From Promethearchaeota archaeon (GTDB lineage Archaea > Asgardarchaeota > Lokiarchaeia > Sigyniarchaeales > SOKP01), in contig JBHLOY010000009.1 in assembly GCA_048939995.1 (NCBI GenBank), positions 32,001 to 96,000 on the forward strand: DNA of 64,000 nt, written 5' to 3'. The notes beneath the pieces are model-generated. The model saw only the letters and a program-made list of their open reading frames with translations. It did no database searches and was not told the DNA's origin. Positions within the stretch are counted from its first letter, which is position 1, and each line of letters opens with the position of its first letter. Shown here piece by piece: positions 9,440-48,629 of this stretch. A program made the position numbers and the translations under genes.

Positions 9440-11713
9440 CTAATCTTTATTATTTTTAATAGGAACAAAAATTCCTTTTTTAATCAAATTTAATAGGGCT
9501 TCATAATCCTTTGGTCCACAAACATTATCTGGAAGTAGATATATAGCATAAAAATAAGTTAGATTATAATCCTTCATAAAATTAGTTGCTTTTTTGACCA
9601 TCTCTTTTTCATTTTGGTTTAGTTTTGCCTCTTTAGGAATTGAGACTCTTAATGGATAACGAAATGAAACATTTAAATCACTATCAATCAGTTTCTGTAT
9701 ACTACGGAATGGTCTTAGGTCACCTTCAAAACTTTCGATTAATTTGCTGTAATATTTGTAAATATGATAAGCCAATGATTCAATAGAATAAAGAAAATTT
9801 TTAGAAGGATTACTCTTCATAATAACGATTACCCGCAAATTGATAAATTCTGTCATTAATATAATAGAATTTTTATATTCTACTTTAACAGTTCGCGATT
9901 CCTTTGCACCATCTATTACTTCAACCCCAAAATTATGAATAGCTTGAAGAAATCCAGATATTAAAGTGGGATCTAATTGTTTTTCCTCAAAGGATTGGGA
10001 ATATAAATCGATTCCGGTTTTTGTATGCAATACAATTATATATTTTAAATTCAAAACATCATTACATTGTTCTAAAAATGTTTGCAGCTTATCTCTTTTT
10101 CGAGATTCCCTCTTCTTAACCACTACATAACTCGAGTAACCTATAGTCATACCACCAATAACAATACTTCCAATTATTATAAATAACGTGAAATCTAGCT
10201 CATTCGGGATTAGATTCGCTTCTATAAAAAATGTCTGAGATTGAACACCCGCATCAGTTTCATTATTCCAAAAAATATAAGCAATATAATCCCCCTCAAT
10301 TGCATTTGTTGGAATTATATATGAAAATTCTAATGGTGATGAAGGTTCTTCTAGTATTTGTTTAGTAGTTTGGTATTTTACTATATCAGCTGGATTGAAA
10401 AGTAATAGCGTGTAATTACCGGCTAAAGGAGATAAAATTGAAAAGCTTAATTCCTGCCCTGCTTGATATTCAGTTATAGGAGCATTTATAATAAATTCTA
10501 TATTTGGAGAATTCGCTCTTATTTCCCATTCAGCACTATTTTCTATAGTGGAATTTGGGATTATTAAATAATTAGTAACGGGGTCAATTATAATGTCTGA
10601 AGAAATATTTATACTATTCTTTATTATATTCAGGTTAGTCCAACTTCTTGGTAAGAGGAATTTTATCGTGTGATTATTAGAAACTCTTGTGATTATAGGA
10701 TTAACAACCCAGACAATAGAATCGTTGAACTGGATATTAACAGAACTTTCAACATTAAATAAATTATTGATATGAAGGGTATAATCAAGTTTAAAATTCA
10801 AGCTCTCAGTTTTATTATTTTCAATCTTAAAGCTAACAATTTCATTATTAGGATGATAATTGATATCACTCCTCTTTAGATATCCATTTCCCTCACCGTA
10901 TCCATTTGATACTTTATAAAAATTACCATTGATTTGAGTAGTCATATTGATTTCTTCTGGAAAAACAGATGAATTAATTTTTTGAATTAATCTATATAGA
11001 AAGGTTACTCCTTGAGAGCCCATCGACCAAGAACCACCATTGAAAGAAGAGCTATACAAATCGGGATTTTTAGGGTTTATATCATTTTTATACCAGAAGT
11101 AATCTGATTTAGGACTAGTTCCTATGGATGATCCATCTATGATAATATAATAATCCCCAATAGGAAGAAAAATAGGGCTAGAAAAAGTTTGGCGATGCCA
11201 AGAGGGTAAAAGAGAAAATGACATATTTAAATTTCTTAATGGGCTATAAGTTTGAGTATTTGGGGCTTTAGTTAAATCATCATAACCTTTTATCTGAAAA
11301 TAAATAGGTTTACTTTCAGAGGATTCATTATTACCATATATTTCGATACCATAGATTATAGTGGGGTCTATGATTTTTAGTTGTACTCCTAAACCATCCT
11401 TAAATTTATTAATAATAGCATAATTAGCGGGAATATCTTCAATTGCTTTTATCTCAGACCCAAACTCTACCTTGCTAAAATTTAGGTTTATATCTTCAAT
11501 AGCCCAAGAGGAGCTAGGTAAATTGAAGTCAAATGAACTTAAATTGTTATAAGTTCCTTTGTTAACTGAATATTCGAAAAAGTCAAATTTGGTATTTATA
11601 TTTAAAGTACTGCTTGTTTTGACTAAAGAAATCCCATTTTCACTAATAAAACTAAAACCTAAAAACAATGCAAATACCAAAATTGAAAAGAAAAATAATT
11701 TTTTTGATTTCAT
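9440..11713 (-). CDS. Single-pass membrane protein with beta-rich ectodomain and cytoplasmic longin-like domain (paralog 1, subtype A)
   Basis: Signal peptide; Asn-rich ectodomain; TM FIIIGSIVIGGMTIGYSSYVVV; cytoplasmic YIIVLHTKTGIDLYSQSF...DPTLISGFLQAIHNFG longin-type pattern. Confidence 0.8.
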   Translation of the reverse strand: MKSKKLFFFSILVFALFLGFSFISENGISLVKTSSTLNINTKFDFFEYSVNKGTYNNLSSFDFNLPSSSWAIEDINLNFSKVEFGSEIKAIEDIPANYAIINKFKDGLGVQLKIIDPTIIYGIEIYGNNESSESKPIYFQIKGYDDLTKAPNTQTYSPLRNLNMSFSLLPSWHRQTFSSPIFLPIGDYYIIIDGSSIGTSPKSDYFWYKNDINPKNPDLYSSSFNGGSWSMGSQGVTFLYRLIQKINSSVFPEEINMTTQINGNFYKVSNGYGEGNGYLKRSDINYHPNNEIVSFKIENNKTESLNFKLDYTLHINNLFNVESSVNIQFNDSIVWVVNPIITRVSNNHTIKFLLPRSWTNLNIIKNSINISSDIIIDPVTNYLIIPNSTIENSAEWEIRANSPNIEFIINAPITEYQAGQELSFSILSPLAGNYTLLLFNPADIVKYQTTKQILEEPSSPLEFSYIIPTNAIEGDYIAYIFWNNETDAGVQSQTFFIEANLIPNELDFTLFIIIGSIVIGGMTIGYSSYVVVKKRESRKRDKLQTFLEQCNDVLNLKYIIVLHTKTGIDLYSQSFEEKQLDPTLISGFLQAIHNFGVEVIDGAKESRTVKVEYKNSIILMTEFINLRVIVIMKSNPSKNFLYSIESLAYHIYKYYSKLIESFEGDLRPFRSIQKLIDSDLNVSFRYPLRVSIPKEAKLNQNEKEMVKKATNFMKDYNLTYFYAIYLLPDNVCGPKDYEALLNLIKKGIFVPIKNNKD

Positions 11714-11919
11714 ATCTAATTTTTATTGATTTCTAATTAAAAATCATAATAGTTTAATTAAAAAATCTTTGGGTTTTAGATTATTACATTAAAAATATTT
11801 TACTTATTAATAATGCAAATTAAATTTTTTTTTTTAAATTGGACTCCTATTATTTTATAAAAAATAAAAGCTATTTTATATTATTAATTCAAGTTATCAA
11901 TGAATAAGAATAGGTTATT

Positions 11920-12831
11920 TTGATGACATTTAAGGAGAAAATAAAAGCATATGTAGATTTGACTAGAGCTCATTTTGCACCCGTTTGGCCATTATTGTTT
12001 TGTTCTGGCTTATTACTTGCATTTAAAAATTATAATTATTTTTCTTGGAGTTTTCTTTTACTAGCAATTTTCATTGGACTTTTTGGATTTGAAGCTGGAA
12101 TGGTATTGAATGATATTATTGATTACCACATAGATGAATTAGATGTCGATGATACACTTACAAATTATTGGAGACCATTCAAGGAACGCCCAATTCCTTC
12201 TGGAAGGGTTTCTTTAAAAGAAGCAGTAGCTGTATTTATTATTTTTGTTTTAATTACCACCATTTTAATAGCCTTTTTACCCTTTCCAAATCTTATATAT
12301 ATATACATTATTATGGTGTATGCTTACTCCATGGAAGTATTCTATCAAATAGTGAAAAGAAAACAGAGATTTCCAATTGCTCAGTTACTTGGAAGGACTG
12401 ATTTACTATTATTCCCAATTGCGGGTTATTTATGTTTTGGATACTTTGATTTTACAGTTATTCTTTATCTTTTATTTATGTATCCTTGGGCTCTTGCACA
12501 CCTTGGAGCGAATGACATTGTTGATGTTAAAAATGACGAGGCAAAAAATCTTAAAACTATTACGGGGTTATATGGTGTTAAAGGAAATATTATATGGATT
12601 AATGTTTTCTCTCTGATCCAAATAATAACTTCTATGGTATTCGCTTTTATTGATTTAGGGATTATAGCACAAATAGGATTTGCTATTGGTTGGGTAATTA
12701 TTATAGGAGCCAATTTGATTATTATTAAGGCTAAAGACTTAAAAGCGAGATTGAAGGCATTGCCTTTATTCCATGCTACTCTTTTGATCTACATTTTAGC
12801 AATAATAATTGACTCTGCTATGGCCATCTAG
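11920..12831 (+). CDS. UbiA family prenyltransferase
   Basis: NDIIDYHIDELD and NDIVDVKNDE Asp-rich motifs, RPIPSG, multiple TM helices. Confidence 0.9.
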   Translation: MMTFKEKIKAYVDLTRAHFAPVWPLLFCSGLLLAFKNYNYFSWSFLLLAIFIGLFGFEAGMVLNDIIDYHIDELDVDDTLTNYWRPFKERPIPSGRVSLKEAVAVFIIFVLITTILIAFLPFPNLIYIYIIMVYAYSMEVFYQIVKRKQRFPIAQLLGRTDLLLFPIAGYLCFGYFDFTVILYLLFMYPWALAHLGANDIVDVKNDEAKNLKTITGLYGVKGNIIWINVFSLIQIITSMVFAFIDLGIIAQIGFAIGWVIIIGANLIIIKAKDLKARLKALPLFHATLLIYILAIIIDSAMAI

Positions 12832-12867
12832 AATTGTTTTTCATTAATTTTATTATTTTATTTATTC

Positions 12868-13668
12868 TTATAGACCTTTTACTTTCTTATGGGAACGTGG
12901 TGGACAACGCATAAACTCAATATCTGGATACCCAATAGTAATAACGCCCCAGCTTTTGCCTACAATCTTAGCAATTTTAAGCAATTTAGGATTACTTTCA
13001 AAAGCTATTTGAGCATATCCAATATAACATGTTCCTAAACCTAATGATTGAGCTGCGATTCTACCATATGTAACTATATTACCGATATTAAAATGATCTA
13101 AGGGAGAGTTCCCTAAAGATGAAACAATTATTATATGGGGAGCATCATGGAAAATAGGATGCTTATAAATTTTTCTTAGTGTCTCAAAGTGCTCTCCACT
13201 GCGAGATTTGATGGAAGGATTTTTAAGAAGTTCACCAATAATTCCTTCTGAAAGAGTACTTAACTGTACTGAGTCTGATATAATAGCAATCTTTTCAGCT
13301 CTAACATTAGCTCCTGTAGGTGCAAATTCCATAACTCTAATAACTTTTTCCAAGGTCGATTTGGGTACTGGTTTGTCTTTATAATGACGAATTGAACGAT
13401 TTGCCCTCAAAAAGTTAGAGATAGTCTCATAGGGAATATAATTTTCAAGATCTTCTATCCCTTCAAAATAGAAAGGATCATCTCCTAAATTTTCAAAAAT
13501 TATTGCTTCGGATGGGCACACAGCAATACAGTGTCCACATAAGTTACATCTTCCATTAATATCCTCAAAAATAACTTTATTCTCTTGTTTTACAAATAAC
13601 CATCTGCACTCTTTGCTACATAACCCGCATTGAGTACATTTCTCATAATTAATTCCTACTATTGGCAT
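12868..13668 (-). CDS. Nitroreductase family protein with N-terminal 4Fe-4S ferredoxin domain
   Basis: CTQCGLCSKEC and CNLCGHCIAVCP; RSIRHY, APTGAN, SLGLGTCYIG. Confidence 0.92.
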   Translation of the reverse strand: MPIVGINYEKCTQCGLCSKECRWLFVKQENKVIFEDINGRCNLCGHCIAVCPSEAIIFENLGDDPFYFEGIEDLENYIPYETISNFLRANRSIRHYKDKPVPKSTLEKVIRVMEFAPTGANVRAEKIAIISDSVQLSTLSEGIIGELLKNPSIKSRSGEHFETLRKIYKHPIFHDAPHIIIVSSLGNSPLDHFNIGNIVTYGRIAAQSLGLGTCYIGYAQIAFESNPKLLKIAKIVGKSWGVITIGYPDIEFMRCPPRSHKKVKGL

Positions 13669-13738
13669 CTTACATCGATTTTAATTAGTTTTATCTATTC
13701 ATTTATTATTTTGAGTAAATTTAGTTTAAAAAAGACAA

Positions 13739-14077
13739 TTATTTTTCCTTAATCATTATCAGTATCATCTTGAACTTTTCAAGAGCTTTCAAAGCATGAG
13801 GTTCATTCGCAGGCATAATTATCATTTGCCCTGTATTAAGGATATAGTCTTTTTTAGAAATTGTAATTTTTACTTTTCCATCTAATATATGCACCATCGC
13901 ATCAAATGGGGCTGTATGCTCGCTTAAGCCTTGATCTTTATCAAAAGAAAAAAGGGTTACCGTCCCTTGATTCTTTTCAATTAAAGTTCTACTAACAACA
14001 GAGCCCTCTTGATAATCTAGCATCTCATTTAAGCTCTGAACTTTTACGAAATCTTTAATCTTTATGTTTTCTGTCAT
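13739..14077 (-). CDS. Cupin domain protein
   Basis: LSEHTAPFDAMVHILDG...MPANEPHAL. Confidence 0.9.
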   Translation of the reverse strand: MTENIKIKDFVKVQSLNEMLDYQEGSVVSRTLIEKNQGTVTLFSFDKDQGLSEHTAPFDAMVHILDGKVKITISKKDYILNTGQMIIMPANEPHALKALEKFKMILIMIKEK

Positions 14078-14237
14078 AATTTTCCCATCTTCTTTAATTA
14101 GTTTATTAAGTTTATAAAGAACCGAACTGATTTAAAGCTAAATGCGAACATGTTATTTTTAAAATACAAAATTATAAAATTGTTATTTGTTATTAGTTAC
14201 TCAAAAATCCATTATTGACTGGAACTTCTATTAGAAT

Positions 14238-15125: not shown

Positions 15126-15140
15126 CCCTTTTTTTAATTT

Positions 15141-15674
15141 TTACTCAATATCATTCAAATGTACTTTAATATAACCAGAACATTTTTCCTGGGAGTAAAG
15201 TAAGCATTTGGTAAATTGGGGATCAATTTCGTATTGGATTCCTAAAGCTTCCAACCAACAGCAAACGCGAATTAAAACTCCACATTCATAATTTTCTTTC
15301 ACTCCAATGAGTTTCATTCCTTCAAACGCAAAACATCTATCCATTTCCCAATAAATGTAATTTCTTTTAGGATACGAGTAGGTAAATTTCATAAAATCCC
15401 CTTTTAATATACTAAATGCGTCATCAATAAATTTTTTCAATTGTTCAAAGGTTGTTATTTTAGAATAATCCATCCCCAGGGCTTTTTTGATTCTTCTTAC
15501 TTCCAAGGGGGCAAGATTTCTAATAGCTCCTTTATTTAGCTTATTAGCCGCATCAATACCAAATAGTTTTACAGAATTATAAAACCAAGAACCATCATGA
15601 GTCATCCAACATTTAACTATCAGTTCTTTTAATTCTTTTTTATTAAGTTGCTCCAATAAATTCAATATGATCAC
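15141..15674 (-). CDS. DUF6125 family (V4R/HNOX-like) protein
   Basis: WMTHDGSWF, C-terminal CF...YECG...WL...C...C; paralog of 27556 and 28056. Confidence 0.75.
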   Translation of the reverse strand: MIILNLLEQLNKKELKELIVKCWMTHDGSWFYNSVKLFGIDAANKLNKGAIRNLAPLEVRRIKKALGMDYSKITTFEQLKKFIDDAFSILKGDFMKFTYSYPKRNYIYWEMDRCFAFEGMKLIGVKENYECGVLIRVCCWLEALGIQYEIDPQFTKCLLYSQEKCSGYIKVHLNDIE

Positions 15675-35626: not shown

Positions 35627-36217
35627 ATGAGTGATGAAGTTAGTGAAGAATCAGTTTGGACAGGAATGATAAGGAAATATTGGTATGCAATAATACTCTA
35701 TGGTATTGCTATTATCGGTGCTATTATAGGAGTTATCTTAGTATTTCTGACATTTATTGCAGCCCCAGATATAGCTGGAGGAGGAACTTGGACTTTTGCA
35801 CAATTTTCTGTAGGCGCTTTGATACTATGGTTTATATTTTTATTCTTGTGGGAATTACTATTGGTAGGGCTCCCTGTTATTGGGTATCTTGCCATAGTAA
35901 CAGTGATCTTTTGGTTTGTAGTTTTATCTGAAGAAGATAAAGCTATAATTAAAAGTAGGGAGAAAAAAGAGAGAAAAGTTAAAAAGACTAGTGGTGGTAG
36001 CGGAGCTGCTGGATTTCTATTCTTTATCGCATTCATTTTAGTTCTTGTAATTGATGGCAATTTGTTTGCTGCATTTGATACATTACCTTATACATATTTT
36101 CTATTTGCTTATCTTGTAGGTGTTATGTGGACCGTTATCGTTCTGGGTATTCCTGTATTGATTATCGTTATAATTTATTATGGATATAAAGAATCAAAAA
36201 AACAAAAATCAGAATAA
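35627..36217 (+). CDS. Hypothetical multi-TM membrane protein
   Basis: Four hydrophobic segments, RBS-like GAGAG, followed by a U-tract. Confidence 0.7.
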   Translation: MSDEVSEESVWTGMIRKYWYAIILYGIAIIGAIIGVILVFLTFIAAPDIAGGGTWTFAQFSVGALILWFIFLFLWELLLVGLPVIGYLAIVTVIFWFVVLSEEDKAIIKSREKKERKVKKTSGGSGAAGFLFFIAFILVLVIDGNLFAAFDTLPYTYFLFAYLVGVMWTVIVLGIPVLIIVIIYYGYKESKKQKSE

Positions 36218-36247: not shown

Positions 36248-38578
36248 TTATATTTTAATTGAAGGATCAAACACCTTTTTCTCAATTAGGTTCAAAATTA
36301 CTTCTGCTTCTTTAGCTTGAAATCCTCCTTTTTGTGAGATTAGGTTAGATACAAAAAAATAATTCACTCCTTTTTGTTTCATAATAATCTTTGCTAATTC
36401 AATAAACTCTTTCTCATTAGAGGTTAATTTTATGGTTGATGCATCATTAATCTGAAGGGGGTAAATCAAGCTGACAGGTAGATGGTGTTCAATAAGATCT
36501 GTTATACCAGTGAATTTACTTACTTCTCCATCAAATCGTTCTAAATCTTTCCCATAATTTTGGTCAATATCATAAGATAACTGCTTTATTGACTCAAGGA
36601 AGTCTTCAGAAGGGCTCTCCTTCATTATAAGAGTTATTCTAAAATTCTTGAATTCAGACATCAATATTTTAGAATCCTGATATTCGAGCTTAACGGTTTG
36701 GGATTGTTGATTTGAACCTGTGAGATCCAGGCCAAAACTTCTAATTGCTTCTAAGAATCCAGAAATTAAAGAGGCATCTATACTCTTACTTGCAAAAATT
36801 TTATCATAAATATTAATTCCAGAATTTTTTTCGATAATTAATAAATAATCCAAATTCAAAATATCCATATATTTGTTAAAAATACTTTGTCGATATGTTG
36901 CTCTTTCTTTTTTAACTTTCTTGACTACTTTAAATGATGTGAATGCACTTACCGCGACTATAGAACCAACAATTGCAGTTATTATAAGGATGAGAGGCAA
37001 AATATCTATATTGACCAAAAATGTTTCCGATTTAATTCCAGCGGCGGTTATTGTATTCCAAAAAACATAAGCAACGTATGCTCCTTCATTTGGATTAGCT
37101 GATAAAGTGTAATTATATACAGTTTCAGTTAGTGTTACAGGGACTCGCTTTCTATCTATCTCATATCCTAATGAATCTCTTAAAATGAATGTATAGTTGC
37201 CCTCTAAAAGAGGAGCAATTACAGAATACTTTAATTCTTGTGATTGCTCGAAATTTTTTTTAGGTGTATTTAGAGTTAATGCAACGTTTGGAGAATTAGC
37301 TCTTATTTCCCAATCAGCACCATCAATAATGGTATTATTGGGAATAATTATTACTTTTCCAATAGGATCAATATTAACTTGGGAAGAGATGTTTATCCCA
37401 TCTCGAAATACTGCTGGGTTAAACCAATTGGAGGGATAATCAAACTTCACTGAATGATTTATATATAATCTTGAAATAATAGGAGTAAGTGTCCAGTTAT
37501 TATCTTGACTTTCTTGCATCGTTACATATCCACTGGAGAAAAATAAATTTTTAAGATTTAGGTGGTAAGTTAAATTAAACAATAATTCTACTGAGTTGTT
37601 ATTCCAGATTTCAATATTTAGGGCATCATCGCCAGGACTATAATCTACTCCTTTGATTGTGAGATTACCCGTTCCGATTTCGGGTCCATTTGTTATTTTA
37701 TAAATACCACCATTTAATTCTGCAGTCATATTTATACTCTCGGGGAAATAGGTTTTGCTTGTTCTTTGAAGAACTTTATATAAGAATGGTGAGCCTTGTT
37801 TTCCTCTTGTCCAGTGCCAAACTGTAAGCTCACGTACATAAAAAGAGATATGAAGGTTTGGATGGTTTGGATTTGCATCATTGTAAAACCAATATATTGT
37901 TGAACCTTCAATCGCTATAAACTGAGTGACATTTAAGAGTAAATAATATTGTCCTATTGAAAGATCAACAGGATTTTGAAACTTTTGGTAATGCCACCCC
38001 AAACTATTCGTCATATTTAATTTTGTTGAGCCATAAATAATATTATTTGGTGAATCTGGTAATAATCCCCCGGAATTATATCCATTTATTTGTACATTCG
38101 TTATATCTACGATTGCTGGAGAGGTAGCAACCCCATAAATATAAACTCCAAAAATTTTAGTTGGCTCAGTAATATTTATTTGAACGCCCATTCCACGCAC
38201 ATCTTTCCCGAGAGTATGAAATCCAACAGTAGTATTATCTTCTATAGTAATGATCTCACGTTCAAGTTTTATATCAGTAAAATTAAGATTAATTTGAGTA
38301 ACATTCCAAGTTGATGAGGGTAATGGGATTTTTATGGAACTATTACTCTCTTGTGTATCAATATTATCTGCTAACTCAATCATATGAAGATGTGTTGGAG
38401 TTGTTAGTGTAATTCCATTATATTGAGCTAAGGATATTTTAGAATTGAATAAAAAGCTAAAAAGAAACATTGAAATCATTCCATAAATAAATAAAACTCT
38501 AAATTTTTTACTTTTCACCATAATTTCCCCATACCTCATTATAGAAATAATTTTAACTGCATTTCTAATCTTAATCAA
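36248..38578 (-). CDS. Single-pass receptor-like protein with cytoplasmic longin-like domain (paralog 2, subtype B; start probably MVKSKK, ~38521)
   Basis: Same architecture as 9440..11713; DASLISGFLEAIRSFG...QTVKLEY.DSKILMSEF; ends NLIEKKVFDP. Confidence 0.8.
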   Translation of the reverse strand: MIKIRNAVKIISIMRYGEIMVKSKKFRVLFIYGMISMFLFSFLFNSKISLAQYNGITLTTPTHLHMIELADNIDTQESNSSIKIPLPSSTWNVTQINLNFTDIKLEREIITIEDNTTVGFHTLGKDVRGMGVQINITEPTKIFGVYIYGVATSPAIVDITNVQINGYNSGGLLPDSPNNIIYGSTKLNMTNSLGWHYQKFQNPVDLSIGQYYLLLNVTQFIAIEGSTIYWFYNDANPNHPNLHISFYVRELTVWHWTRGKQGSPFLYKVLQRTSKTYFPESINMTAELNGGIYKITNGPEIGTGNLTIKGVDYSPGDDALNIEIWNNNSVELLFNLTYHLNLKNLFFSSGYVTMQESQDNNWTLTPIISRLYINHSVKFDYPSNWFNPAVFRDGINISSQVNIDPIGKVIIIPNNTIIDGADWEIRANSPNVALTLNTPKKNFEQSQELKYSVIAPLLEGNYTFILRDSLGYEIDRKRVPVTLTETVYNYTLSANPNEGAYVAYVFWNTITAAGIKSETFLVNIDILPLILIITAIVGSIVAVSAFTSFKVVKKVKKERATYRQSIFNKYMDILNLDYLLIIEKNSGINIYDKIFASKSIDASLISGFLEAIRSFGLDLTGSNQQSQTVKLEYQDSKILMSEFKNFRITLIMKESPSEDFLESIKQLSYDIDQNYGKDLERFDGEVSKFTGITDLIEHHLPVSLIYPLQINDASTIKLTSNEKEFIELAKIIMKQKGVNYFFVSNLISQKGGFQAKEAEVILNLIEKKVFDPSIKI

Positions 38579-38708: not shown

Positions 38709-40010
38709 GTGAATAAAGTGGTAAGGATAACGACTAAAGGTATGAGCGATTGGTTTGGACTTTTTGGTTCATCTACTTTTGGAGATGGTCTATGCCATTT
38801 TATAGGATGTATGGCTAATATGTGCGTTTTTGATACTAGCGAAGGGCTAGTTATATTTGACTTGCCAATGAAACAATTTAGTTATAAAATATTTAAAGCA
38901 ATCAGAGAAAGAACCAAAAAACCAGTAAAATATTTCATATATTCTCATGGTCATTTTGATCATGCATTTGCATTCGCACCTTTCATCGAAGAAGTAGGAA
39001 AAAAGGGTTGGATAATGCCTGAAGTTATAGCACATGAAAATTGTATTAAAAGATTCGAAAAATATAGGATGCTTAGTGAATATCACGTGTGGATTAATAA
39101 AATGCAATTTGCTTCACTAGGGATATTGAAGCATAAAAATTTAGTTTCTGCTTTAGAAACTCTTGATCCAACAATCATTTTAAAAGGAAATGATGCAAAA
39201 TACAATTTTGAATTAGGAAGTATTCAATTTGATCTAAATCATGATAAAGGTGAAACAGATGACTCAATCTGGTTATGGGTACCTGAGAAAGAAACGATTT
39301 GTGCGGGGGATTTATTCGTATCATCATTTCCTAATATAGGTAATCCTTTTAAGGTTCAGCGTTATCCTAAAGATTGGGCAATTGCTTTGGATAAAATGCT
39401 TGAAAAAGAGGCAAAGTATCTAGTTCCAGGACATGGTCCTCTTATAAAAGGGAAAGAAAAGGTTAAGGAGGCTCTATTAATAACTTCTGAGGCTTTGCAT
39501 TTTGTGCATGATGAGGTTGTTAAGCGGCTTAATGCGGGGAAATGGTTTGAGCAAATCTACTATGAGATGCTAGAAATATTCCCTAAAAAATTCAAAAACC
39601 ATCCATTATTGCGGGAGATGTATGGATGTTATCGATTTGCAATTCACGCATCCTACAGACTCTATCATGGCTGGTATAACAGTGGTAATCCTACAGAATT
39701 ATTTCCTTCAAAGGCAACAGATATTGCACAAGAATTTTTAAAGCTCAATAGTGAAGAATCATACTTGAATCATGCAAAGAAGTTATTTGAGGAAGGTAAA
39801 CTACAATTAGCATTGCATATTCTCGATGTCGTAATAAATGGAATCAATGAAAAGAAGGGCAGTATCTATTTAAAGGCTTTACAATTAAAATATGACATTC
39901 TAAAAATTAAAGTGGAGGAAGAGTCGTCTTTTATTGCTGCTAATATTCTTGATAATGCGAGATATAATATAAAAGATAAGATTAAAACCATACAAAAACA
40001 ATTAAAATAG
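38709..40010 (+). CDS. Alkyl sulfatase-like MBL hydrolase (SdsA/BDS1 type) with dimerization domain
   Basis: YSHGHFDH, GETDD, AGD...PN.GNP, PGHG, LREMYG, YHGWYNSGNPTEL. Confidence 0.82.
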   Translation: MNKVVRITTKGMSDWFGLFGSSTFGDGLCHFIGCMANMCVFDTSEGLVIFDLPMKQFSYKIFKAIRERTKKPVKYFIYSHGHFDHAFAFAPFIEEVGKKGWIMPEVIAHENCIKRFEKYRMLSEYHVWINKMQFASLGILKHKNLVSALETLDPTIILKGNDAKYNFELGSIQFDLNHDKGETDDSIWLWVPEKETICAGDLFVSSFPNIGNPFKVQRYPKDWAIALDKMLEKEAKYLVPGHGPLIKGKEKVKEALLITSEALHFVHDEVVKRLNAGKWFEQIYYEMLEIFPKKFKNHPLLREMYGCYRFAIHASYRLYHGWYNSGNPTELFPSKATDIAQEFLKLNSEESYLNHAKKLFEEGKLQLALHILDVVINGINEKKGSIYLKALQLKYDILKIKVEEESSFIAANILDNARYNIKDKIKTIQKQLK

Positions 40011-40018
40011 AATTTTTC

Positions 40019-42268
40019 TTATCGTTGAGGCACAAAAACGCCTTTTTTAATAAGATTAAGTACGGTTTGGGCATCCTTTGGTGAACATTCATTTTCAGGT
40101 AGCAGATAAAGCGCATAAATATGGTCTAATCCATAATCTTCCATTAATTTCTTCGCTTTTTCAACCATCTCCCTTTCAGCAGAATTTAATCTTACATTAT
40201 CAGGCATTTCTATTTTTAACGGATAGATGAACGAAACATTTAGATGTTCTTCAACCAATTCTTTGATTCCTTTAAAGTCTTTTACATTTCCATGAAATTC
40301 ATCAATCATTTTTCCATAATTTTTATACACATCATATGCTAAGGATTCAACAGCATAATGGAAATCTACTGAAGGTTCAGCTTTCATGTTTAGGATGATT
40401 CTTACATTTACAAATTCTGTCATTAATAAGATAGAATTTTTATATTGTATTTTTACTGTTTTGTCTTTATCCTTGGCTACTTCTGAACCAAACGCACGAA
40501 CGGCTTGTAGAAAACCAGATATTAATGTGGAATCCCCTTTTTGTTCTCCAAATGATTGAGAATAAATGTCTATTCCAGATCTAATATCAGTCACTATTAA
40601 ATAGTTTAGGTTGAGGATATCTACACATTTTTCTAGCAATCTTTGCATCTCATATCTACGATTTTTTGATACTCTCTTATAAGCTATAAAGCTTAAGATT
40701 GCAGCAATAGGTGCAATTGTAACAACCGTAATAATTATAAAGAAAATACCCATATCTGGGGGAGGTGATTTAGGGATAGAAATAATAAACTCTTGAACTA
40801 TAACACCCGCATCGGTCTGATTGTTCCAGAATACGTATGCAATATAGGTTCCGTCTGGTGAACTCAATGGAAGTGTATAGGAAAATAGAATAGTATCAGG
40901 AGGTATAGTTTTGCTGATATTAAATTCTTCAATATCTGCAGAGTTTATTAAAATATACGTATAGGTTCCTTCTAATGTAGGTGTTGCTAGCGAAAATTGA
41001 ACTTCTTGTCCTAAATAATAATCTGTTTTTGGAGCATTCAATCCAATTGAAAAACTAGGAGATTCCGCCATTATCTCCCAATTAGCGTTTTCGATAAGAG
41101 TATTATTTGGGATAAATATATAATTTTCATTAATTGTTATATTGAATTCCATATTTTGCCCATCTCTAAAAACGCTTATATTTTCCCATGTACGGGGAAT
41201 TTTGAATTTAATGCTATAATTATCTGTATAACGAATAAATGTTCGGGAAAGAATCCATTCATTACTTTGAGATTCCTGTATACTTACTTCACCCAGAGTG
41301 ATTAAACTTTCCTCAAAATATAAATGATAGGAAATATTGAAATCTAACGCTTTTGAAGCGTTATTATTAACAGCAAAAGAAAGAGTAGTAGTTAAAGGAC
41401 GAAAATCTTGAAATGTTTGAGATAAAACCCCACTTCCCTCTTCTCCACCATTTAACACTTGATATTCTTGATTATTTATATTAACGGACATATTGATACT
41501 TTCTGGAAAAAGAGGAGCTTTACTTTTCCGAATTATTTTGTAAAGAAATGTTTTATTATCTACCCCGTCAGCCCAAATAACGCTATCCTCTAGAGTAGTC
41601 GCAGAGTACAATGATGGATCGCTAGGATTTGAATTATAATGCCAGTAATAATATTGACCATTAAGACTAAAATTAGTTCCATTTAGAACTAAAAAGTAAT
41701 TTCCACTTGGTAAATTAAGAGGAGATGAAAAATTTTGTATATACCATCCCAAAGTTGTTGAGATATTGAGAGTCTGAGAAGTAAAAATGGTGCTATTTGG
41801 TGTGTTATTTGTATCATTATATCCTCGAATCTGCACTTGAATATTTTGAGTGGTACCCGCGCTCTTGTTTCCATAGATAAACACTCCATAAATGGTTTCG
41901 GGATGATCTAATCTAATTTGAGTTGCTAAGCCTAAATTATTAAAAATTCCATTTGTAAAATAAACCCGTTCAAATCCCGTTGGTTGATCTTCTACGATTA
42001 TTGTCTCCTTTTCAAAAGTAAGGTTCATAAAATCTAATTCAATGTTCGTAATATTCCATTCAGTAGTTGGTAATTCAATATTAATAGAATTGACAGTTGA
42101 ATTTGATCCTTGAAGATCAGAATATTGAGACATTTTAAAACTAGTATTTAGATTTAAAATTAGATCATGCCCTTGAGCCTTAGTACTTCTTAAATTTATA
42201 TTAAAACTAATGAAGAGAGCAGTAGATACTAAAATGAAAATTAATAGACTTTTTTTATTCAAACTCAA
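40019..42268 (-). CDS. Single-pass receptor-like protein with cytoplasmic longin-like domain (paralog 3, subtype A)
   Basis: DSTLISGFLQAVRAFG...YKNSILLMTEF...VESLAYD; ends NLIKKGVFVP. Confidence 0.8.
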   Translation of the reverse strand: MSLNKKSLLIFILVSTALFISFNINLRSTKAQGHDLILNLNTSFKMSQYSDLQGSNSTVNSINIELPTTEWNITNIELDFMNLTFEKETIIVEDQPTGFERVYFTNGIFNNLGLATQIRLDHPETIYGVFIYGNKSAGTTQNIQVQIRGYNDTNNTPNSTIFTSQTLNISTTLGWYIQNFSSPLNLPSGNYFLVLNGTNFSLNGQYYYWHYNSNPSDPSLYSATTLEDSVIWADGVDNKTFLYKIIRKSKAPLFPESINMSVNINNQEYQVLNGGEEGSGVLSQTFQDFRPLTTTLSFAVNNNASKALDFNISYHLYFEESLITLGEVSIQESQSNEWILSRTFIRYTDNYSIKFKIPRTWENISVFRDGQNMEFNITINENYIFIPNNTLIENANWEIMAESPSFSIGLNAPKTDYYLGQEVQFSLATPTLEGTYTYILINSADIEEFNISKTIPPDTILFSYTLPLSSPDGTYIAYVFWNNQTDAGVIVQEFIISIPKSPPPDMGIFFIIITVVTIAPIAAILSFIAYKRVSKNRRYEMQRLLEKCVDILNLNYLIVTDIRSGIDIYSQSFGEQKGDSTLISGFLQAVRAFGSEVAKDKDKTVKIQYKNSILLMTEFVNVRIILNMKAEPSVDFHYAVESLAYDVYKNYGKMIDEFHGNVKDFKGIKELVEEHLNVSFIYPLKIEMPDNVRLNSAEREMVEKAKKLMEDYGLDHIYALYLLPENECSPKDAQTVLNLIKKGVFVPQR

Positions 42269-42417
42269 CCCATTTTATTATAATTTATTATTTTAATCCT
42301 CTTCTACTATAAAAAAGTTTTTGTCTAATTTTTTATAACTGTTTGAAATTAATAAAAAATTAATTTCTTTTATAATTATATTTTTTTAAAAAAATTAAAG
42401 AGAAAATAAAAATAGAG

Positions 42418-43728
42418 TTAGGGTTTAAGGATAGCCCCTTTGCTTAGAGCAGTTATGGTTTTATCTTTTGGTTCGGGGACGAAATTTAATACAATAAAAA
42501 CACCGATAAATGCAACTAGGCTAAGAAGCATACCAGTACCGAGTGCCTGAAGAGAAACAAATGGGTTGCTAAAAGGATCTGCACTAAAAGGGTTAAGTGC
42601 ATCCGAAATAACTCCCACTATAAATCCTCCCAAGCCAGCTCCACGTGCTATAGAAAATATTATTGAGTTTGCAGAAGCTCTAACTTCAGTATCATATAAT
42701 TCAGAAGACCAAACACCAAAGATACCATGAAGACCAAAACCGAGTGTAATAAAAACAGAGGATAAGAGGATCAGATTATCACTAAACAACATTTTAGTAA
42801 ATATAGCAAATAATACCCCTCCAATTATTCCAATGATGTTATCGATTAGAAAAGCTTTTTTTCTACCCAGATAATCACTTAAAAACCCAAAGAAAAATAA
42901 ACCGAATGCAGCTATTACCATAAGAACTAACATAAAAAGTCTTGAGATACTTTCATAATTAGTTACTCCCGCGTTGGCAAATAAGTACTGAAAGAAAGTT
43001 GGTGCAAAGTCTACTAAGGAATGATAGGCAATTTCAGCGAACCAGAACAAAAAAATAAGTAATACAGTTAACTTCCGCCATTTCCTACTGAAAATTTCTT
43101 TTAAACGTATTTTTTGTTTAATCTGTTTCTCCTTGCGGAGTTGTTCATATTCAGTCCAAATAGCAGATTCTGGTAAGGTGAACCAAAAGAGTATAATAAA
43201 AGGTATAGGAAAGAGGGCAGTAAGGAAACAGAACTGCCACGGACGGATCAGCAATGTTGTTATTATTGCACCGATATATCCTAATACAAATGTAGAGTGA
43301 ACTAAACCACCTGCAGCACCTCTTCTTTTAGGAGAAAAATGTTCGGATATTAACGAGAAAGAAATTCCCCAACTGACTCCCAAACCAGAAATCATTCTCA
43401 TAATTGCGAATAGTACAAACATATTAGAAGGTACTAGCGAAGTCAAAGAGGAAAAAATCGCATCCCATGCTATAGAGATGATTAATGCATTTTTCCTCCC
43501 AAAACGATCTCCTAATTCACCGAAAAGAATGGCACCGGGAACAGTAAATACGAATTGAAATGAAAAAACAAGACCTATCTGCCAATCACCGACTCCAAAG
43601 AATGTTTTTAGTTCGGGAGCTAGTAAAGTTACCATAACTAATGAATATCCATCATGCATCCATGCAATAAATGCAGCCAACAGAATTATTAAAGTTGTAA
43701 ATTTTGAATATTTTTTAAGTTCAGTCAA
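42418..43728 (-). CDS. MFS transporter (aromatic acid/carboxylate-type)
   Basis: GELGDRFGRK, SEHFSPKRRG, PES, SDYLGRK, SELYDTEVRA. Confidence 0.92.
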   Translation of the reverse strand: MTELKKYSKFTTLIILLAAFIAWMHDGYSLVMVTLLAPELKTFFGVGDWQIGLVFSFQFVFTVPGAILFGELGDRFGRKNALIISIAWDAIFSSLTSLVPSNMFVLFAIMRMISGLGVSWGISFSLISEHFSPKRRGAAGGLVHSTFVLGYIGAIITTLLIRPWQFCFLTALFPIPFIILFWFTLPESAIWTEYEQLRKEKQIKQKIRLKEIFSRKWRKLTVLLIFLFWFAEIAYHSLVDFAPTFFQYLFANAGVTNYESISRLFMLVLMVIAAFGLFFFGFLSDYLGRKKAFLIDNIIGIIGGVLFAIFTKMLFSDNLILLSSVFITLGFGLHGIFGVWSSELYDTEVRASANSIIFSIARGAGLGGFIVGVISDALNPFSADPFSNPFVSLQALGTGMLLSLVAFIGVFIVLNFVPEPKDKTITALSKGAILKP

Positions 43729-43814
43729 ATTTTTTCACTTTTTAATAGAAATTAGTGAATAGGTAAATATTGTCTTAAGAAATATTTAAGATTATAAGAA
43801 AGTGCAAGAAGGTT

Positions 43815-44738
43815 TTATTGAGATATAAGGTAAAAAACGAAAGCGATACATCCTAAACTTGCCATAACAATACCCATAGCCCTACCCATTTTTTTTGCTG
43901 ATAAACTTTGAATATAGGTTGAGGTAAGAATGCCAGTAATAGCAGAGCCAATTGCTAAGAAAAGGGAAATTTCAAAATTTATGTAAAATGTTCCTCTAAA
44001 TGAAACTCCAAGAATTTGATATAAGGTAAAGGTAATTAGGCTAACAATGATACTTAATATAAGAGCAGTTCCAATACTCTTTTTAATTGGATAACCATAA
44101 AGAATTATTAAAGCTAAAACAATTATCAATCCTGAGTTTGCTCCAAATAAGCCTGAATTTATTCCGAGGAGAAGACCAAAAACTATAGCGACTATAAAAT
44201 ATAATCTAGATCCTGAAGGGATTACTTCTTCTATTTCAATTGTTTTTGCATTTGTTTTATTTTTTTGAGAGAGAATATCAATTTGTTCTTCAATTTCAAC
44301 CTTTAAAAATCTCTTATATATGTTTCTAACCATCTTCTTTAACCGTTCGGTTGTCGTATATCCACTCTTAATAAAAATTAATCCCAAAAAAATAATGAAT
44401 AGAGGTATGAACCAACCATAAATATTACCTATTGGAGTTAGCATCAATATAAATACCCCGATAAAAGTAAAAACAAGAGCAATTAATATTAATATGAAAA
44501 TATTTTTTTGAAATTTATATTCCCTTTTTCTTATATACCCAACACTTACTGCAAAGGCAGTTATTAAATCGTTTAATAAGTTAATTGCAATTGTTAAAAA
44601 CACATCTCCAGTTAACATAAGGACTATTGGCATGACAAGCCCTTGTCCAGTTTGGCCAATAAAACACATACCAATACCAACAAGAGCCCCAATTATCAAT
44701 AAGATAAATATCTGATATATTTCTAAAGCCATCGTCAA
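43815..44738 (-). CDS. TauE/SafE family exporter
   Basis: Duplicated G-rich TM halves (IGQTGQG..., SGLFGANSG..., SIGTAL). Confidence 0.75.
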   Translation of the reverse strand: MTMALEIYQIFILLIIGALVGIGMCFIGQTGQGLVMPIVLMLTGDVFLTIAINLLNDLITAFAVSVGYIRKREYKFQKNIFILILIALVFTFIGVFILMLTPIGNIYGWFIPLFIIFLGLIFIKSGYTTTERLKKMVRNIYKRFLKVEIEEQIDILSQKNKTNAKTIEIEEVIPSGSRLYFIVAIVFGLLLGINSGLFGANSGLIIVLALIILYGYPIKKSIGTALILSIIVSLITFTLYQILGVSFRGTFYINFEISLFLAIGSAITGILTSTYIQSLSAKKMGRAMGIVMASLGCIAFVFYLISQ

Positions 44739-44802
44739 TTATTCCAGATTAATTAATATAAATTATTATACTATTACTGAATTGAAAATTTCTTTTCTTT
44801 AT

Positions 44803-46311
44803 TCAATTTGCTGCTATTCTTTTAGGGAATTTTGTCTGAGCCTTTAAATTCTGTTGAAGAAGTGTGTTGATCAATTTAAATCTTTCATCTCTAAAAGCGC
44901 GGTTTTCCCATAGATTATTAAGCTCATAAGGATCATTTTTTCGGTCATATATATCCCCATAATCAAGGCCCTCATATACAGTCAATTTGTAATGTTCAGT
45001 TACTAAATGCCTTAACCGAGCTTCAAGTGGACCTACTTCTTCATCATTTTCAATAAAAATACATGTTCTCACTCTTTCTCTGGGATTCATTAAAATGGGT
45101 GAAATATCAAAACCTTGCATGTCAGATGGATGATATCGACTATGTATACCCAATAAATTTAGAATAGTTTTTGGATAATCAATAGAACTTACCAAAGAGT
45201 TCGAAATTCCTGATTTTAGATATCCAGGTACTTTCCAGATCAATGGAAGTTGCAATACACCGTTGAATGGGCATGGTCCTTTAAAGAGTAGGCCGTGTTC
45301 GCCCATTAAGTCACCATGATCACTCATGAATACTATAATGGTATTCTTTGAATAGCCTAGTTTATCCAACGCTGCAACTATTTGCCCTATACTATAATCA
45401 ACATAGGATATTGCCGCATAAGTTAAAGCCGTCATCTTTTGAACTTCTTCTTTACTTGACTCCCGTAAAAAGGCTTTTTTAAATGGTGGATTCTTTAAAT
45501 GAGTGCCTAAAAATTTATGTTTATACAGATTTTGGATATCTGTAAAATTTGGAGGAAGTTCGATGTCATCAGGATCATACATATTTTGGAATCGTTCAGG
45601 AGGATATATAGGATAATGAGGATCTGGAAAGGAACAATGCAGATAAAAAGGTTTATTCCCATATTCTCCTCTCGCATGTCTCTCTAAAAATGCAATTGTT
45701 CTTTCTTTCACATATGTAGTGTTATATAATTCTTCTGGTATCTTCTCACAGAAAAGCCTGAAAAGATTGTCGTAATTTTTTACTTTTTTTCTCATTTTTT
45801 CTGCTTCATGCGGAGATCTCTCTTCTAACCACTCTAAATAATGACCAGTACATAAAGATCCATTTCCCGAAATTAGTTCTACCTCTTTATAACCATAATA
45901 ATCTAAAGGAAATGTGTTTGAAGTTGTTTTATAGTCTGCCCACTCATCTATGCTTTCAACTGACCTAGATTTATGCTTAAATGCCCCAAACCAAAATTGA
46001 TGGTGAATTTTTCCGATAGCTGCTGTATGCCACCCTCTCTTTTTCAGTGTTTGAATAATAGTGGGAATCTCTGGTCTTAAATTAATTCCATTACTCCTAA
46101 CACCATGTACGTTAGGGTAAACCCCCGTAATCAGTGTAGCTCGATTAGGCATACAAATTGGATTAGTACAAAAGTGATTAGTAAACTGAACTCCTTCCTT
46201 AGCTAATCTATCCAGATTTGGGGTTTTTATAATTGGGTTTCCTGCATACCCTAAATGATCAGCTCTTTGAGCATCTGTTATAATGAATAACACATTCATT
46301 TTGTCACTCAT
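44803..46311 (-). CDS. Formylglycine-dependent sulfatase (arylsulfatase family)
   Basis: NVLFIITDAQR, CMPNRATLITG (CxPxR), GKIH, PH, SDHG. Confidence 0.93.
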   Translation of the reverse strand: MSDKMNVLFIITDAQRADHLGYAGNPIIKTPNLDRLAKEGVQFTNHFCTNPICMPNRATLITGVYPNVHGVRSNGINLRPEIPTIIQTLKKRGWHTAAIGKIHHQFWFGAFKHKSRSVESIDEWADYKTTSNTFPLDYYGYKEVELISGNGSLCTGHYLEWLEERSPHEAEKMRKKVKNYDNLFRLFCEKIPEELYNTTYVKERTIAFLERHARGEYGNKPFYLHCSFPDPHYPIYPPERFQNMYDPDDIELPPNFTDIQNLYKHKFLGTHLKNPPFKKAFLRESSKEEVQKMTALTYAAISYVDYSIGQIVAALDKLGYSKNTIIVFMSDHGDLMGEHGLLFKGPCPFNGVLQLPLIWKVPGYLKSGISNSLVSSIDYPKTILNLLGIHSRYHPSDMQGFDISPILMNPRERVRTCIFIENDEEVGPLEARLRHLVTEHYKLTVYEGLDYGDIYDRKNDPYELNNLWENRAFRDERFKLINTLLQQNLKAQTKFPKRIAAN

Positions 46312-46388
46312 TATTATTACTTCGATTAATTAAAATAAATAACTTACTTAAAGTAAAAAAAAAAGATGGAAGAAAAATATCAAACTTT

Positions 46389-48629
46389 CTAAATGACTGG
46401 CTGAAATATTTTTTTCTCTATTAAGTTAAAAATAGCCTCTATATCCTTCGAATCATACTGCTTAGTTTCCATAATATGGGTCGTGTAGAAATAATTTTGT
46501 TTATTTCTTTTCATAACTTCTAAAGCACGACCAATAATTGTTCGTTCTACTTGGTCTACTTTATGTTTTCCAGTTTTAACGACTTTTAATGGATATAAAA
46601 AGGAAATATTCAAATGTTTCTTAAGCAAGTCTTCAATACCCTTAAATGGGTCAATATTTCCCTTAAATTTTTCAAGGTATCGGCCATAGTATAATTCAAT
46701 ATCAAAAGCTAACTGATTTATTGAATCGAGGAATTTTTCTGAGGGTAATTGGTTCATAATTAGAACTATTCGAAAGTCTCTGAATTCAGACATTATCACT
46801 TTGGAATTTTTGAATTCAAGTTTGATTGTTTGCGTTTTTTCATCTGTATTTGTCAATTCTATTCCAAAAGAATGAATTGCTGATAAAAATCCTGTTATAA
46901 GAGTAGGATCAATTTTTTGGGATGTAAATACTTGTTCATATACATTTAATGATGATTTTTTTTCAGCAATCATAATATATTTTAGGTTTAAAATGTCCAT
47001 ACACTTATTAATAATTTCCTCTTTCTTTGTCATGACTTTCCTCTTATGCCGTTTAGCAACAATAATAATAGAGATTGTAACTCCGCTAAAAACTGCAACT
47101 CCTAAAATAATAAGAAATAAACTCAACGGATCTATTGTAAATGGAACCGTAATAGTAAAAGTAGCAGTTTCAACTCCAGCATTTAATCCATTAAAAAAAT
47201 ATATATATGCATAATAACTGCCATCTAGAGGGTAAGCAGGGATATTATAAGCAAGAATGTTAGCATCTGAAGGAAGTGAAATTGTTTGACGGGAGACTTC
47301 GTAATAATCAGGACGATATAGTACAAAAGTATAGTTACCTGGCGTTACAGGAGTATCAATTGAAAATCTCAATTCTTGACCCGGTCCATACTCAGTTAGG
47401 CGTATATCTAGATCAAAATTAAATCTAGGAGAGTTGGCTGATATTAACCATTCTGCTCCATCAATTATAACTCCATTATAAATAAACAATGTATTTTGGG
47501 TTGAATTGTCAAATATTAAAGAGCTGATATTGACATTATTTCTATAAACGGTCAAATTATTCCAATTAGAGGGATAAACAAATTTAATAAAATAATTCTC
47601 ATATACTTCATTAAAAGAAGGCGTTATATTCCATAGATTATCCCTATTGGTTTCAATTGAAACAGATCCAGTACAAATAAACCCACTTTTTATATTTAAA
47701 TAATAATTAAGACTGAAATTTAATTGTATATTGAGATGATTTTTAATTTCAATATTCAAACTGTCTGTTTCTGTCGCCCAATTTAGTCCAGTTAAAGCTA
47801 ATTCTCCAGAATTAGGAATACTAGAGTTTAAAATAGGATAATCTAAACCATTAATTACCGCTGTCATATTTAATTCTTCGGGATTATAGCTTTTATTTAC
47901 TTTCTGAGCTAATTTGTATAGATATGGTTCACTTTGCGTTCCTGGTAGCCAATTAGAAGTATATTCTGCGGCGTAAAGTGTTGGATCCTTGGGATCAACT
48001 CCATTGTAAGCCCAATAATATTCTGTATCTCCACTTACAATTCCGAACATAACTAAATAATAGTTTCCACTTTCTAGAGTTACTCGAGAATTAAAGTTTT
48101 GATAATACCAACCGGGTACTGAAGAAACATTGATATCTGTAAATGCATAAATTGTATCATTAGGTTTATGATCAACACTATCAAAACCTCTAATTTGAAC
48201 TTGAATGACTTGGGTTGTGGTTTCAGGCTTGTATGCATAAATATCAACCCCGAATATGGTAGTAGTCTCATTTAGTTTTATTTGAACTCCGAGTCCATGT
48301 CTCCTTTTAGAAGGGGTATCATAATAAATCCGACCATATGTCCCTTGAGCTTGATCCTCAATTATTTTTAGCTCGCGTTCCAACTTTATGTTTGAAAAAT
48401 TAAGATGCAAATTAGTTATATTCCAATTATTTGAAGGTAGGGAAATTTCGACTGTGCTTACATTTTCATTGCTGCCACTTTTTTCAGCATATTCTTCAAA
48501 TAAGAAGTTAGAGGCCGCTATTAAGTGTTCACCACTTACTTGAGCTTCAACAAATTCGAATTGAAAAACGAATCCTAAAAATAACATTACAAAAAGGGAA
48601 TTAATGAGTAGATAATTCTTTACTTTCAT
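46389..48629 (-). CDS. Single-pass receptor-like protein with cytoplasmic longin-like domain (paralog 4, subtype B)
   Basis: DPTLITGFLSAIHSFG...QTIKLEFKNSKVIMSEF; ends NLIEKKIFQP. Confidence 0.8.
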   Translation of the reverse strand: MKVKNYLLINSLFVMLFLGFVFQFEFVEAQVSGEHLIAASNFLFEEYAEKSGSNENVSTVEISLPSNNWNITNLHLNFSNIKLERELKIIEDQAQGTYGRIYYDTPSKRRHGLGVQIKLNETTTIFGVDIYAYKPETTTQVIQVQIRGFDSVDHKPNDTIYAFTDINVSSVPGWYYQNFNSRVTLESGNYYLVMFGIVSGDTEYYWAYNGVDPKDPTLYAAEYTSNWLPGTQSEPYLYKLAQKVNKSYNPEELNMTAVINGLDYPILNSSIPNSGELALTGLNWATETDSLNIEIKNHLNIQLNFSLNYYLNIKSGFICTGSVSIETNRDNLWNITPSFNEVYENYFIKFVYPSNWNNLTVYRNNVNISSLIFDNSTQNTLFIYNGVIIDGAEWLISANSPRFNFDLDIRLTEYGPGQELRFSIDTPVTPGNYTFVLYRPDYYEVSRQTISLPSDANILAYNIPAYPLDGSYYAYIYFFNGLNAGVETATFTITVPFTIDPLSLFLIILGVAVFSGVTISIIIVAKRHKRKVMTKKEEIINKCMDILNLKYIMIAEKKSSLNVYEQVFTSQKIDPTLITGFLSAIHSFGIELTNTDEKTQTIKLEFKNSKVIMSEFRDFRIVLIMNQLPSEKFLDSINQLAFDIELYYGRYLEKFKGNIDPFKGIEDLLKKHLNISFLYPLKVVKTGKHKVDQVERTIIGRALEVMKRNKQNYFYTTHIMETKQYDSKDIEAIFNLIEKKIFQPVI

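Follow-up and report, generated by a model that had tools for sequence, protein, structure and literature searches.

Four paralogous surface glycoproteins of a Lokiarchaeial genome share a cytoplasmic longin domain, a candidate docking platform for Rab-like small GTPases

The window analyzed here is a stretch of 64,000 nucleotides from a Promethearchaeota archaeon of the class Lokiarchaeia (assembly GCA_048939995.1, contig JBHLOY010000009.1, positions 32,001 to 96,000), which is one part of a source genome of 3.75 Mb with 30.5% GC. It contains four genes, termed here paralogues 1 to 4, which encode surface proteins with a cytoplasmic longin domain (Table 1). All four open reading frames are present on the minus strand and encode proteins of 757, 776, 749 and 746 amino acids (aa) that align over their full length, with 37-41% pairwise identity. 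A preliminary description of this DNA had assigned them one architecture and a set of shared motifs; both were borne out, and the motifs it quoted are invariant. Judged by these alignments, the four genes are old paralogues. The start codon of paralogue 2 is probably the ATG at 38521, which would give a protein of 757 aa, since the signal peptide then matches its position in the other paralogues. Searches of the four proteins, their tails and their ectodomains against Pfam and NCBIfam gave no family above the cut-off, and their relatives are annotated as hypothetical proteins.

Each paralogue has one N-terminal hydrophobic segment and one transmembrane (TM) helix followed by a basic stretch, a topology read from hydropathy alone, with no dedicated signal-peptide predictor. 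N-glycosylation sequons number 13-22 on the N-terminal side of the TM helix versus 0-2 on its C-terminal side. Because the sequons are concentrated before the helix and the basic stretch follows it, the C-terminal part is assigned to the cytoplasm. On these features the proteins belong to the type-I membrane glycoproteins, and their last 225 residues are cytoplasmic, as the signal peptide, single TM helix and cytoplasmic tail proposed earlier had implied.

The ectodomain of paralogue 1 was modeled from 91 sequences (predicted local distance difference test [pLDDT], 94) and is all beta, with four sandwiches. Its head (residues 85-247) matched a tail tip domain of phage Bxb1 (Z 13.3) and the lectin-like domain of Cwp84 (Z 12.8, root-mean-square deviation [rmsd] 3.0, 150 residues aligned). 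PHR domains also matched the head, although less well (Z 9.6-9.9), and the jelly-roll fold therefore leaves the ligand unfixed. The last domain of the ectodomain resembled the MG2 domains of complement C3 and alpha-2-macroglobulin (Z 11-12, rmsd 2.0), and a weak match to Pfam MG2 was found in 3 family members; the first and third sandwiches were barely covered by the structure search. In this model the ectodomain reads as a rigid stalk of Ig-like type that bears a lectin-like head. The head had been described as variable and the stalk as better conserved, which did not hold: across 194 family members, mean pairwise identity was 0.39 for the head versus 0.37-0.39 for the stalk domains, and the two were equal at every divergence level. 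A hypervariable ligand-binding head was thus rejected. Moreover, the four genes fall into four deep groups, each separately conserved, and many relatives hold four or five such genes in this region, paralogue 3 often lying immediately upstream of paralogue 2. For these reasons the genes are, by sequence, an old and stable set and not a fast-diversifying array, and the deep, separately conserved groups also led us to reject a recent diversifying expansion.

In the model of the paralogue 1 tail, built from 89 sequences (pLDDT 85, predicted template-modeling score 0.80), the longin stands between a juxtamembrane helix and a small alpha/beta domain. In a comparison with 48,161 solved chains, ranks 1-11 were all longins (SRX, VAMP7, synbindin, adaptor mu subunits and Sec22). 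The best match was SRX (Z 10.7, rmsd 3.1 over 121 residues), and Fuzzy, Bet5, Mon1-Ccz1 and NPRL2 ranked after the first eleven. Foldseek returned AP-2 sigma (E 1.6e-4) and Fuzzy (3e-4). The model, the chain comparison and Foldseek thus agree with the longin fold that had been proposed for this domain, while the receptor-tail profile found nothing significant among PDB sequences. The last 65 residues matched the winged-helix insertion of type II methionine aminopeptidases (MetAP) with a middling score (Z 7.4, rmsd 2.7, 63 residues aligned), which fits the winged-helix-like tail of the preliminary description, and weakly matched the winged-helix domain (WHD) of APAF-1. A profile of this domain gave nothing significant against PDB and Pfam. 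In the source genome, a winged-helix-like domain of this type occurs only C-terminal to this longin.

Within the longin, helix alpha1 is the most conserved segment, with a mean identity among the 194 members of 0.71, versus 0.49 across the longin as a whole and 0.39 across the ectodomain. Four of its residues are nearly invariant (G587, 98%; A591, 100%; F595, 99%; G596, 98%). In Mon1-Ccz1 and TRAPP, the GTPase site is formed by paired alpha1 helices, and in Mon1-Ccz1, bulky substitutions at Ccz1 G106/G110 or Mon1 G250/T254 abolish exchange (PMC5216073). The small residues four apart on alpha1 that are typical of such guanine nucleotide exchange factors (GEFs) are present here as G587 and A591. 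When a profile of 44 longins of the genome was compared with PDB sequences, Bet5 and Mon1 ranked first, with alpha1 in register, at weak significance (E 0.02-0.05).

The source genome encodes 48 longin-like proteins, roughly 35 of them non-membrane. Twelve single-pass membrane proteins carry the longin described here; they range in total length from 380 to 1567 aa and have several kinds of ectodomain, and in most of them the winged helix follows the longin. A tail profile matched 266 of 301 Asgard genomes, including 88 of the 90 of good quality, counts that include soluble longins at the weak end. Seven strong matches were checked, from three distant genomes, and in all of them a TM helix stands just before the module; one of the seven is a 3031-aa protein encoded by a single-contig 4.36-Mb genome of the same order as the source. 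Of the best 150 representatives, 117 have an upstream sequence long enough to judge, and 115 of these have a TM helix there. The 750-aa ectodomain type is narrower, occurring in 44 of the 81 genomes of the family and in 8 of its 13 genera. Comparison of these proteins shows that one longin and winged-helix tail has been reused behind many unrelated ectodomains.

Several other proteins related to the module were observed. In the ESM Atlas, the longin portion of the tail found counterparts (template-modeling score 0.49-0.62) among Thermoplasmatota proteins that contain DUF11 or CARDB domains, which suggests, as far as models go, a comparable architecture outside Asgard archaea; a search of the Atlas by features gave, below 0.9, unnamed Asgard clusters alone. 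A Phycisphaerae metagenome-assembled genome (MAG) contig with a 56% identical fragment was set aside as a probable binning error. A 379-aa paralogue with almost no ectodomain (G000:C11:118437-119576, minus strand) is a mosaic: its TM and juxtamembrane parts share up to 88% identity with paralogue 1, the remaining longin shares 62-72% with paralogue 3, and the C terminus consists of a Tyr/Pro-rich repeat and then a zinc ribbon, with a similar protein in another genome (P0185). Its sequence points to recombination between tails. A soluble relative of 456-459 aa (G000:C27:1959-3338) has the same longin with further helical domains and no TM helix; it is encoded ~3 kb downstream of the paralogue 1 orthologue in four loci and is a candidate cytoplasmic dimer partner. 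A longin of the same broad family also ends a 747-aa protein with ~12 TM helices (G000:C37:116579-118822), a transporter-like or receptor-like fusion. A cluster of about nine helical, tetratricopeptide repeat (TPR)-like proteins of 560-830 aa (G000:C38:4895-28817 and C38:134476-139082) was also seen, each with a longin near its C terminus.

Outside the archaea, the tail matched OmpA-family proteins in the ESM Atlas. The longin profile was run against 120 genomes of the phylum of a Phycisphaerae planctomycete MAG and detected a membrane protein in three (E ~1e-9), each time with a coiled-coil gene upstream and a Rab-like GTPase gene directly downstream. By its gene content, this order is the layout of Group 1 Rup, a computationally described system in which a protein of the form 'unknown domain - TM - OmpA', of unnamed fold, stands beside a Rab-like GTPase and was read as a membrane signaling device (PMC4316618). 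In hhalign, the bacterial domain reached a probability of 92.5% with the receptor tail and 97.7% with the wider profile, and alpha1 and the F-x-G motif were aligned. Homology of the tail to the membrane partner of a Rup GTPase therefore supports a GTPase-docking role. The two systems share this cytoplasmic domain, which a single TM helix connects to an extracytoplasmic part, as well as a proposed function in membrane signaling with a Rab-like GTPase that lacks the G3 glutamine, Rup being known from computation alone. They differ in that the longin is N-terminal to the TM helix in Rup and C-terminal here, and in that the outer part is a periplasmic domain, often OmpA, in Rup and a glycosylated ectodomain of lectin and Ig type here. 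Furthermore, Rup has no winged helix and forms a strict operon of GTPase, coiled-coil protein and output protein, whereas no operon is seen here.

We consider it somewhat probable that the cytoplasmic longin of these surface glycoproteins serves Rab-like small GTPases as a docking platform tethered to the membrane. The topology, the folds, the conservation of alpha1, the reuse of the tail and the homology to the Rup partner, on which this reading builds, were shown by prediction and comparison. Longins in general are platforms that can act as GEF, as GTPase-activating protein (GAP) or as neither, often with a need for extra subunits, and GTPases occur in most longin or roadblock complexes (PMC3747258). 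By analogy with such complexes, we infer that two longins, belonging either to two receptors or to a receptor and a non-membrane longin, would pair via alpha1 and the edge strand, and that the paired alpha1 helices would bind the GTPase, as in Mon1-Ccz1, TRAPP and MglB. An unprenylated GTPase might in this way be recruited to clusters of surface proteins, for example at a glycan or a contact with a partner cell, and adhesion would thereby be tied to membrane remodeling. That ligand binding switches the platform on is speculative. Equally speculative are two possible effects of the tail, namely, inside-out positioning of the surface protein and plain recruitment of the GTP form, as in SRX/SR-beta; nucleotide exchange as its effect seems doubtful to us. 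SRX, the longin of the signal recognition particle receptor alpha subunit and the best structure match, sets a precedent, for it binds a GTPase at the membrane as a monomer and is neither GEF nor GAP (PMC3747258), although the membrane anchor is on the GTPase there and on the longin here.

A number of findings weigh against a docking platform. Individual sequence matches to Bet5 and Mon1 were not significant, and soluble longins of many architectures share the alpha1 motif, which may therefore mark the fold or a dimer interface and not a GTPase site. Among the best structure matches are the sigma subunits of adaptors and the longins of SNAREs, which are known exceptions needing no GTPase (PMC3747258). 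Genomic linkage to GTPases was weak. The source genome has 85 GTPase-like genes, and 5% of its ordinary genes lie within 500 bp of one and 20% within 5 kb; by comparison, a GTPase gene was present in 10 of 80 related loci, and 3 of the 12 membrane-type members of the genome lie within 5 kb of one. A two-copy complex prediction for the tail of paralogue 1 scored 0.29 against a mark of 0.42, which speaks neither for nor against pairing.

The GTPase gene at 8910..9434 had been proposed as a dedicated partner, and this link did not extend beyond one genus. Of the five full-length paralogues, only paralogue 1 adjoins a GTPase gene; this one lies on the opposite strand, with the two stop codons 5 nucleotides apart, tail to tail and not in an operon, and three of the four window genes lie 17-27 kb from any GTPase. 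An orthologue of this GTPase was found within ~1.1 kb of paralogue 1 in four of the six same-genus genomes that have both, twice in convergent and twice in divergent orientation. Outside the genus no orthologue was found at E 1e-75, although paralogue 1 orthologues occur there. The 10 of 80 loci and the genus-limited linkage rule out a conserved operon. Asgard GTPases and their longins, however, generally do not stand in operons (PMC10933270), so that weak synteny neither proves nor excludes a partnership. The neighboring GTPase itself has no G3 glutamine (DFGGE), a GKxD sequence in G4 and no C-terminal cysteine; DFGGE is found in five and GKxD in four of the GTPases of the genome and are thus minority variants that are not unique to it.

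The main rival to the docking platform, which we regard as possible but tentative, is a GTPase-independent sorting or assembly tag. Longin and winged helix would then oligomerize or bind a partner from a coat, the ESCRT machinery or the cytoskeleton, as the longins of adaptor sigma subunits and SNAREs do, and the proteins would belong, as structural components, to the irregular surface coat of Loki cells. Such a tag would agree with the presence of AP sigma and mu, zeta-COP, VAMP7 and Sec22b among the top fold matches, with the occurrence of one tail behind ectodomains of 380 to 3000 aa and with the lack of enrichment of GTPase genes beside the family. Asgard longins are also found fused to ESCRT-related and adaptin domains (PMC11188069), and cultured Loki cells bear many unordered surface proteins and no S-layer (PMC9834061; 10.1101/2025.07.22.663070). 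However, the closest non-Asgard homologue found is in an operon with a Rab-like GTPase in three of three cases, Bet5 and Mon1 stand above the adaptors in sequence similarity, and five longins of the genome match Pfam Fuz_longin_1 versus one that matches the adaptor family.

A ligand-gated receptor-GEF, which would be a special case of the docking platform, we think unlikely. Here a ligand bound to the head would dimerize the receptors, and the longin dimer would form and catalyze GDP release, particularly on the GTPase at 8910..9434. The resemblance of alpha1 to that of Bet5 and Mon1, the absence of a GAP-type motif, the invariant tryptophans of the lectin-like head and the recurrence of the GTPase near paralogue 1 in two orientations are in line with it, but the GTPase orthologue is confined to the genus, most of the four genes are remote from any GTPase, and the head shows no excess variation. 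Moreover, the motif SxDxR of the Mon1 elbow loop, which like the Bet3 wedge is an extra catalytic element of such GEFs, was not found in any of the 194 members, whose alpha2-alpha3 region reads F-x-G-x-L-x-P-F, and longins are platforms rather than catalysts. Compared with the longin-dimer Rab GEFs (Mon1-Ccz1, TRAPP Bet5/Trs23, Fuzzy-Inturned and BLOC-3), the tail has the same fold (Z 7.5-10.2) and, in a weak alignment, the small-residue alpha1 motif of Bet5 and Mon1. Those GEFs are soluble multi-longin or multi-subunit heterocomplexes, whereas one longin is fused to a TM protein here, and the Mon1-Ccz1/TRAPP type has a continuous ten-stranded sheet in the longin dimer and performs nucleotide exchange on a Rab-like GTPase; no Bet3-like third subunit is linked to the genes described here. 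In the broadest version of the idea, single-pass receptors throughout the Asgard phylum would let an outside ligand assemble an inside longin dimer that directly activates a Rab-like GTPase, so that one chain would unite the receptor with an exchange platform like Mon1/TRAPP. Eukaryotic soluble longin GEFs would descend from these receptors, and bacterial Rup would be their sister. This version likewise appears improbable.

It is very unlikely that the tail is a membrane-tethered GAP of the NPRL2/FLCN kind that turns GTPases off. The order of longin and winged helix does recall Npr2/Npr3 (PMC3521125), the NPRL2/NPRL3 pair of GATOR1; R627, which might serve as an arginine finger of the kind found beside the GP motif, is 86% conserved, and the neighboring GTPase is without the G3 glutamine. 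However, the GP motif, which lies before strand beta2 and defines GAP longins (PMC12290439), occurs in 0 of 194 members, which rules out membership of the GP-motif group (NPRL2/FLCN/SMCR8), and the model puts R627 at the beginning of strand beta5. The genome encodes separate proteins with the GP motif, and the present proteins also differ from NPRL2/NPRL3 in having one winged helix instead of three, a membrane anchor and a large ectodomain. Least credible of all is a one-component receptor whose tail, freed by intramembrane proteolysis or in place, serves as a DNA-binding winged-helix regulator. The fold is indeed C-terminal, and fusions of Asgard longins to signaling domains are common according to the text of Liu et al. 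(2020, 10.1101/2020.10.19.343400). However, the winged helix is matched best by a non-DNA-binding insertion of MetAP2-fold proteins, no transcription-factor family matched the domain in any of 61 members, and it has a mixed charge and conserved columns of structural P, E and L.

By the features tested, the four proteins thus fall outside the Mon1/TRAPP, NPRL2 and Rup families and plausibly, by analogy, work in a similar way. Liu et al. catalogued Asgard 'NPRL2-like longin' families and many longin fusions, and their main text describes fusions to two-component domains, not to type-I surface proteins (10.1101/2020.10.19.343400). The combination of ectodomain, TM helix, longin and winged helix was not described in the literature searched, a search that lay outside most subscription papers and the supplements of Liu et al. 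The receptor logic is also less isolated than first suggested, since a TM protein beside a Rab-like GTPase has been described for Group 1 Rup (PMC4316618).

Asgard archaea have dozens of Rab-like GTPases, and genome sequence makes it difficult to tell which regulator pairs with which of them. When GTPase, roadblock and TRAPPC3 proteins of Asgard archaea were expressed in HeLa cells, they showed no membrane localization (PMC10933270); a TM-fused longin is a concrete answer to the question of how Asgard GTPases could reach the membrane, and it possibly ties the dense surface coat of Loki cells to membrane remodeling. A link to the Rup partner would shift the origin of membrane longin-GTPase pairs to a time before the Asgard archaea. 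The tail is small, is predicted to fold well and is present in nearly all good-quality Asgard genomes, which makes it amenable to in vitro study.

Table 1. Features of the four paralogues and the adjoining GTPase gene, in window coordinates
Feature	Coordinates	Strand	Basis
Paralogue 1, 757-aa type-I membrane glycoprotein (a signal peptide, then four beta sandwiches, a TM helix, the longin and the winged helix)	9440..11713	-	
Paralogue 2, 776 aa from TTG, architecture as paralogue 1	36248..38578	-	
Paralogue 3, 749 aa, architecture as paralogue 1	40019..42268	-	
Paralogue 4, 746 aa, architecture as paralogue 1	46389..48629	-	
Predicted signal peptide, paralogue 1, residues ~1-33	11615..11713	-	Hydropathy and basic n-region
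Lectin-like jelly-roll head, paralogue 1, residues 85-247, inserted in first beta-sandwich	10973..11461	-	Model, structure matches
Jelly-roll head equivalents, paralogues 2-4	37757-38263, 41519-42013, 47895-48380		
Membrane-proximal macroglobulin (MG2)-type Ig domain, paralogue 1, residues 405-498	10220..10501	-	
Single TM helix, paralogue 1	10121..10192	-	Hydropathy
TM helix equivalents, paralogues 2-4	36926-36997, 40682-40753, 47058-47129		
Cytoplasmic longin domain, paralogue 1, residues 555-686	9656..10051	-	Model, structure matches
Longin equivalents, paralogues 2-4	36461-36856, 40223-40612, 46593-46988		
Longin helix alpha1, G587-x3-A591-x3-F595-G596 motif, paralogue 1; candidate dimer and GTPase surface	9926..9973	-	
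C-terminal winged-helix-like domain, paralogue 1, residues 688-753	9455..9652	-	
Winged-helix-like equivalents, paralogues 2-4	36254-36457, 40022-40219, 46392-46589		
Rab-like small GTPase of 174 aa in convergent orientation to paralogue 1; candidate partner	8910..9434	+	Pfam Ras, E 1.7e-45

A scan for sigma-70-type promoters and terminators, a model ill-suited to archaea, gave hits at chance level. The genes located among paralogues 2-4 encode an alkyl-sulfatase-like protein (38709..40010), a transporter like those of the major facilitator superfamily (42418..43728), a TauE sulfite exporter (43815..44738) and a sulfatase (44803..46311). A sulfatase gene was found beside family members in 26 of 80 loci and an alkyl-sulfatase gene in 21 of 80; this neighborhood might reflect no more than synteny, or it might hint that sulfated glycans are ligands. 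An unannotated membrane protein of 196 aa (35627-36217), convergent with paralogue 2 and found beside family members in 25 of 80 loci, is a possible membrane partner. On the other side of the GTPase gene, the region 3721-6754 encodes two secreted or membrane proteins with Asp-rich acidic N termini and no Pfam match (4414..5655 and 5732..6754), followed by a 220-aa protein; the Asp-rich pair lies downstream of a ZIP-like metal transporter (7849..8697). Finally, a 1226-aa protein with ~20 WD40 repeats is encoded at 54703-58383 of the window.

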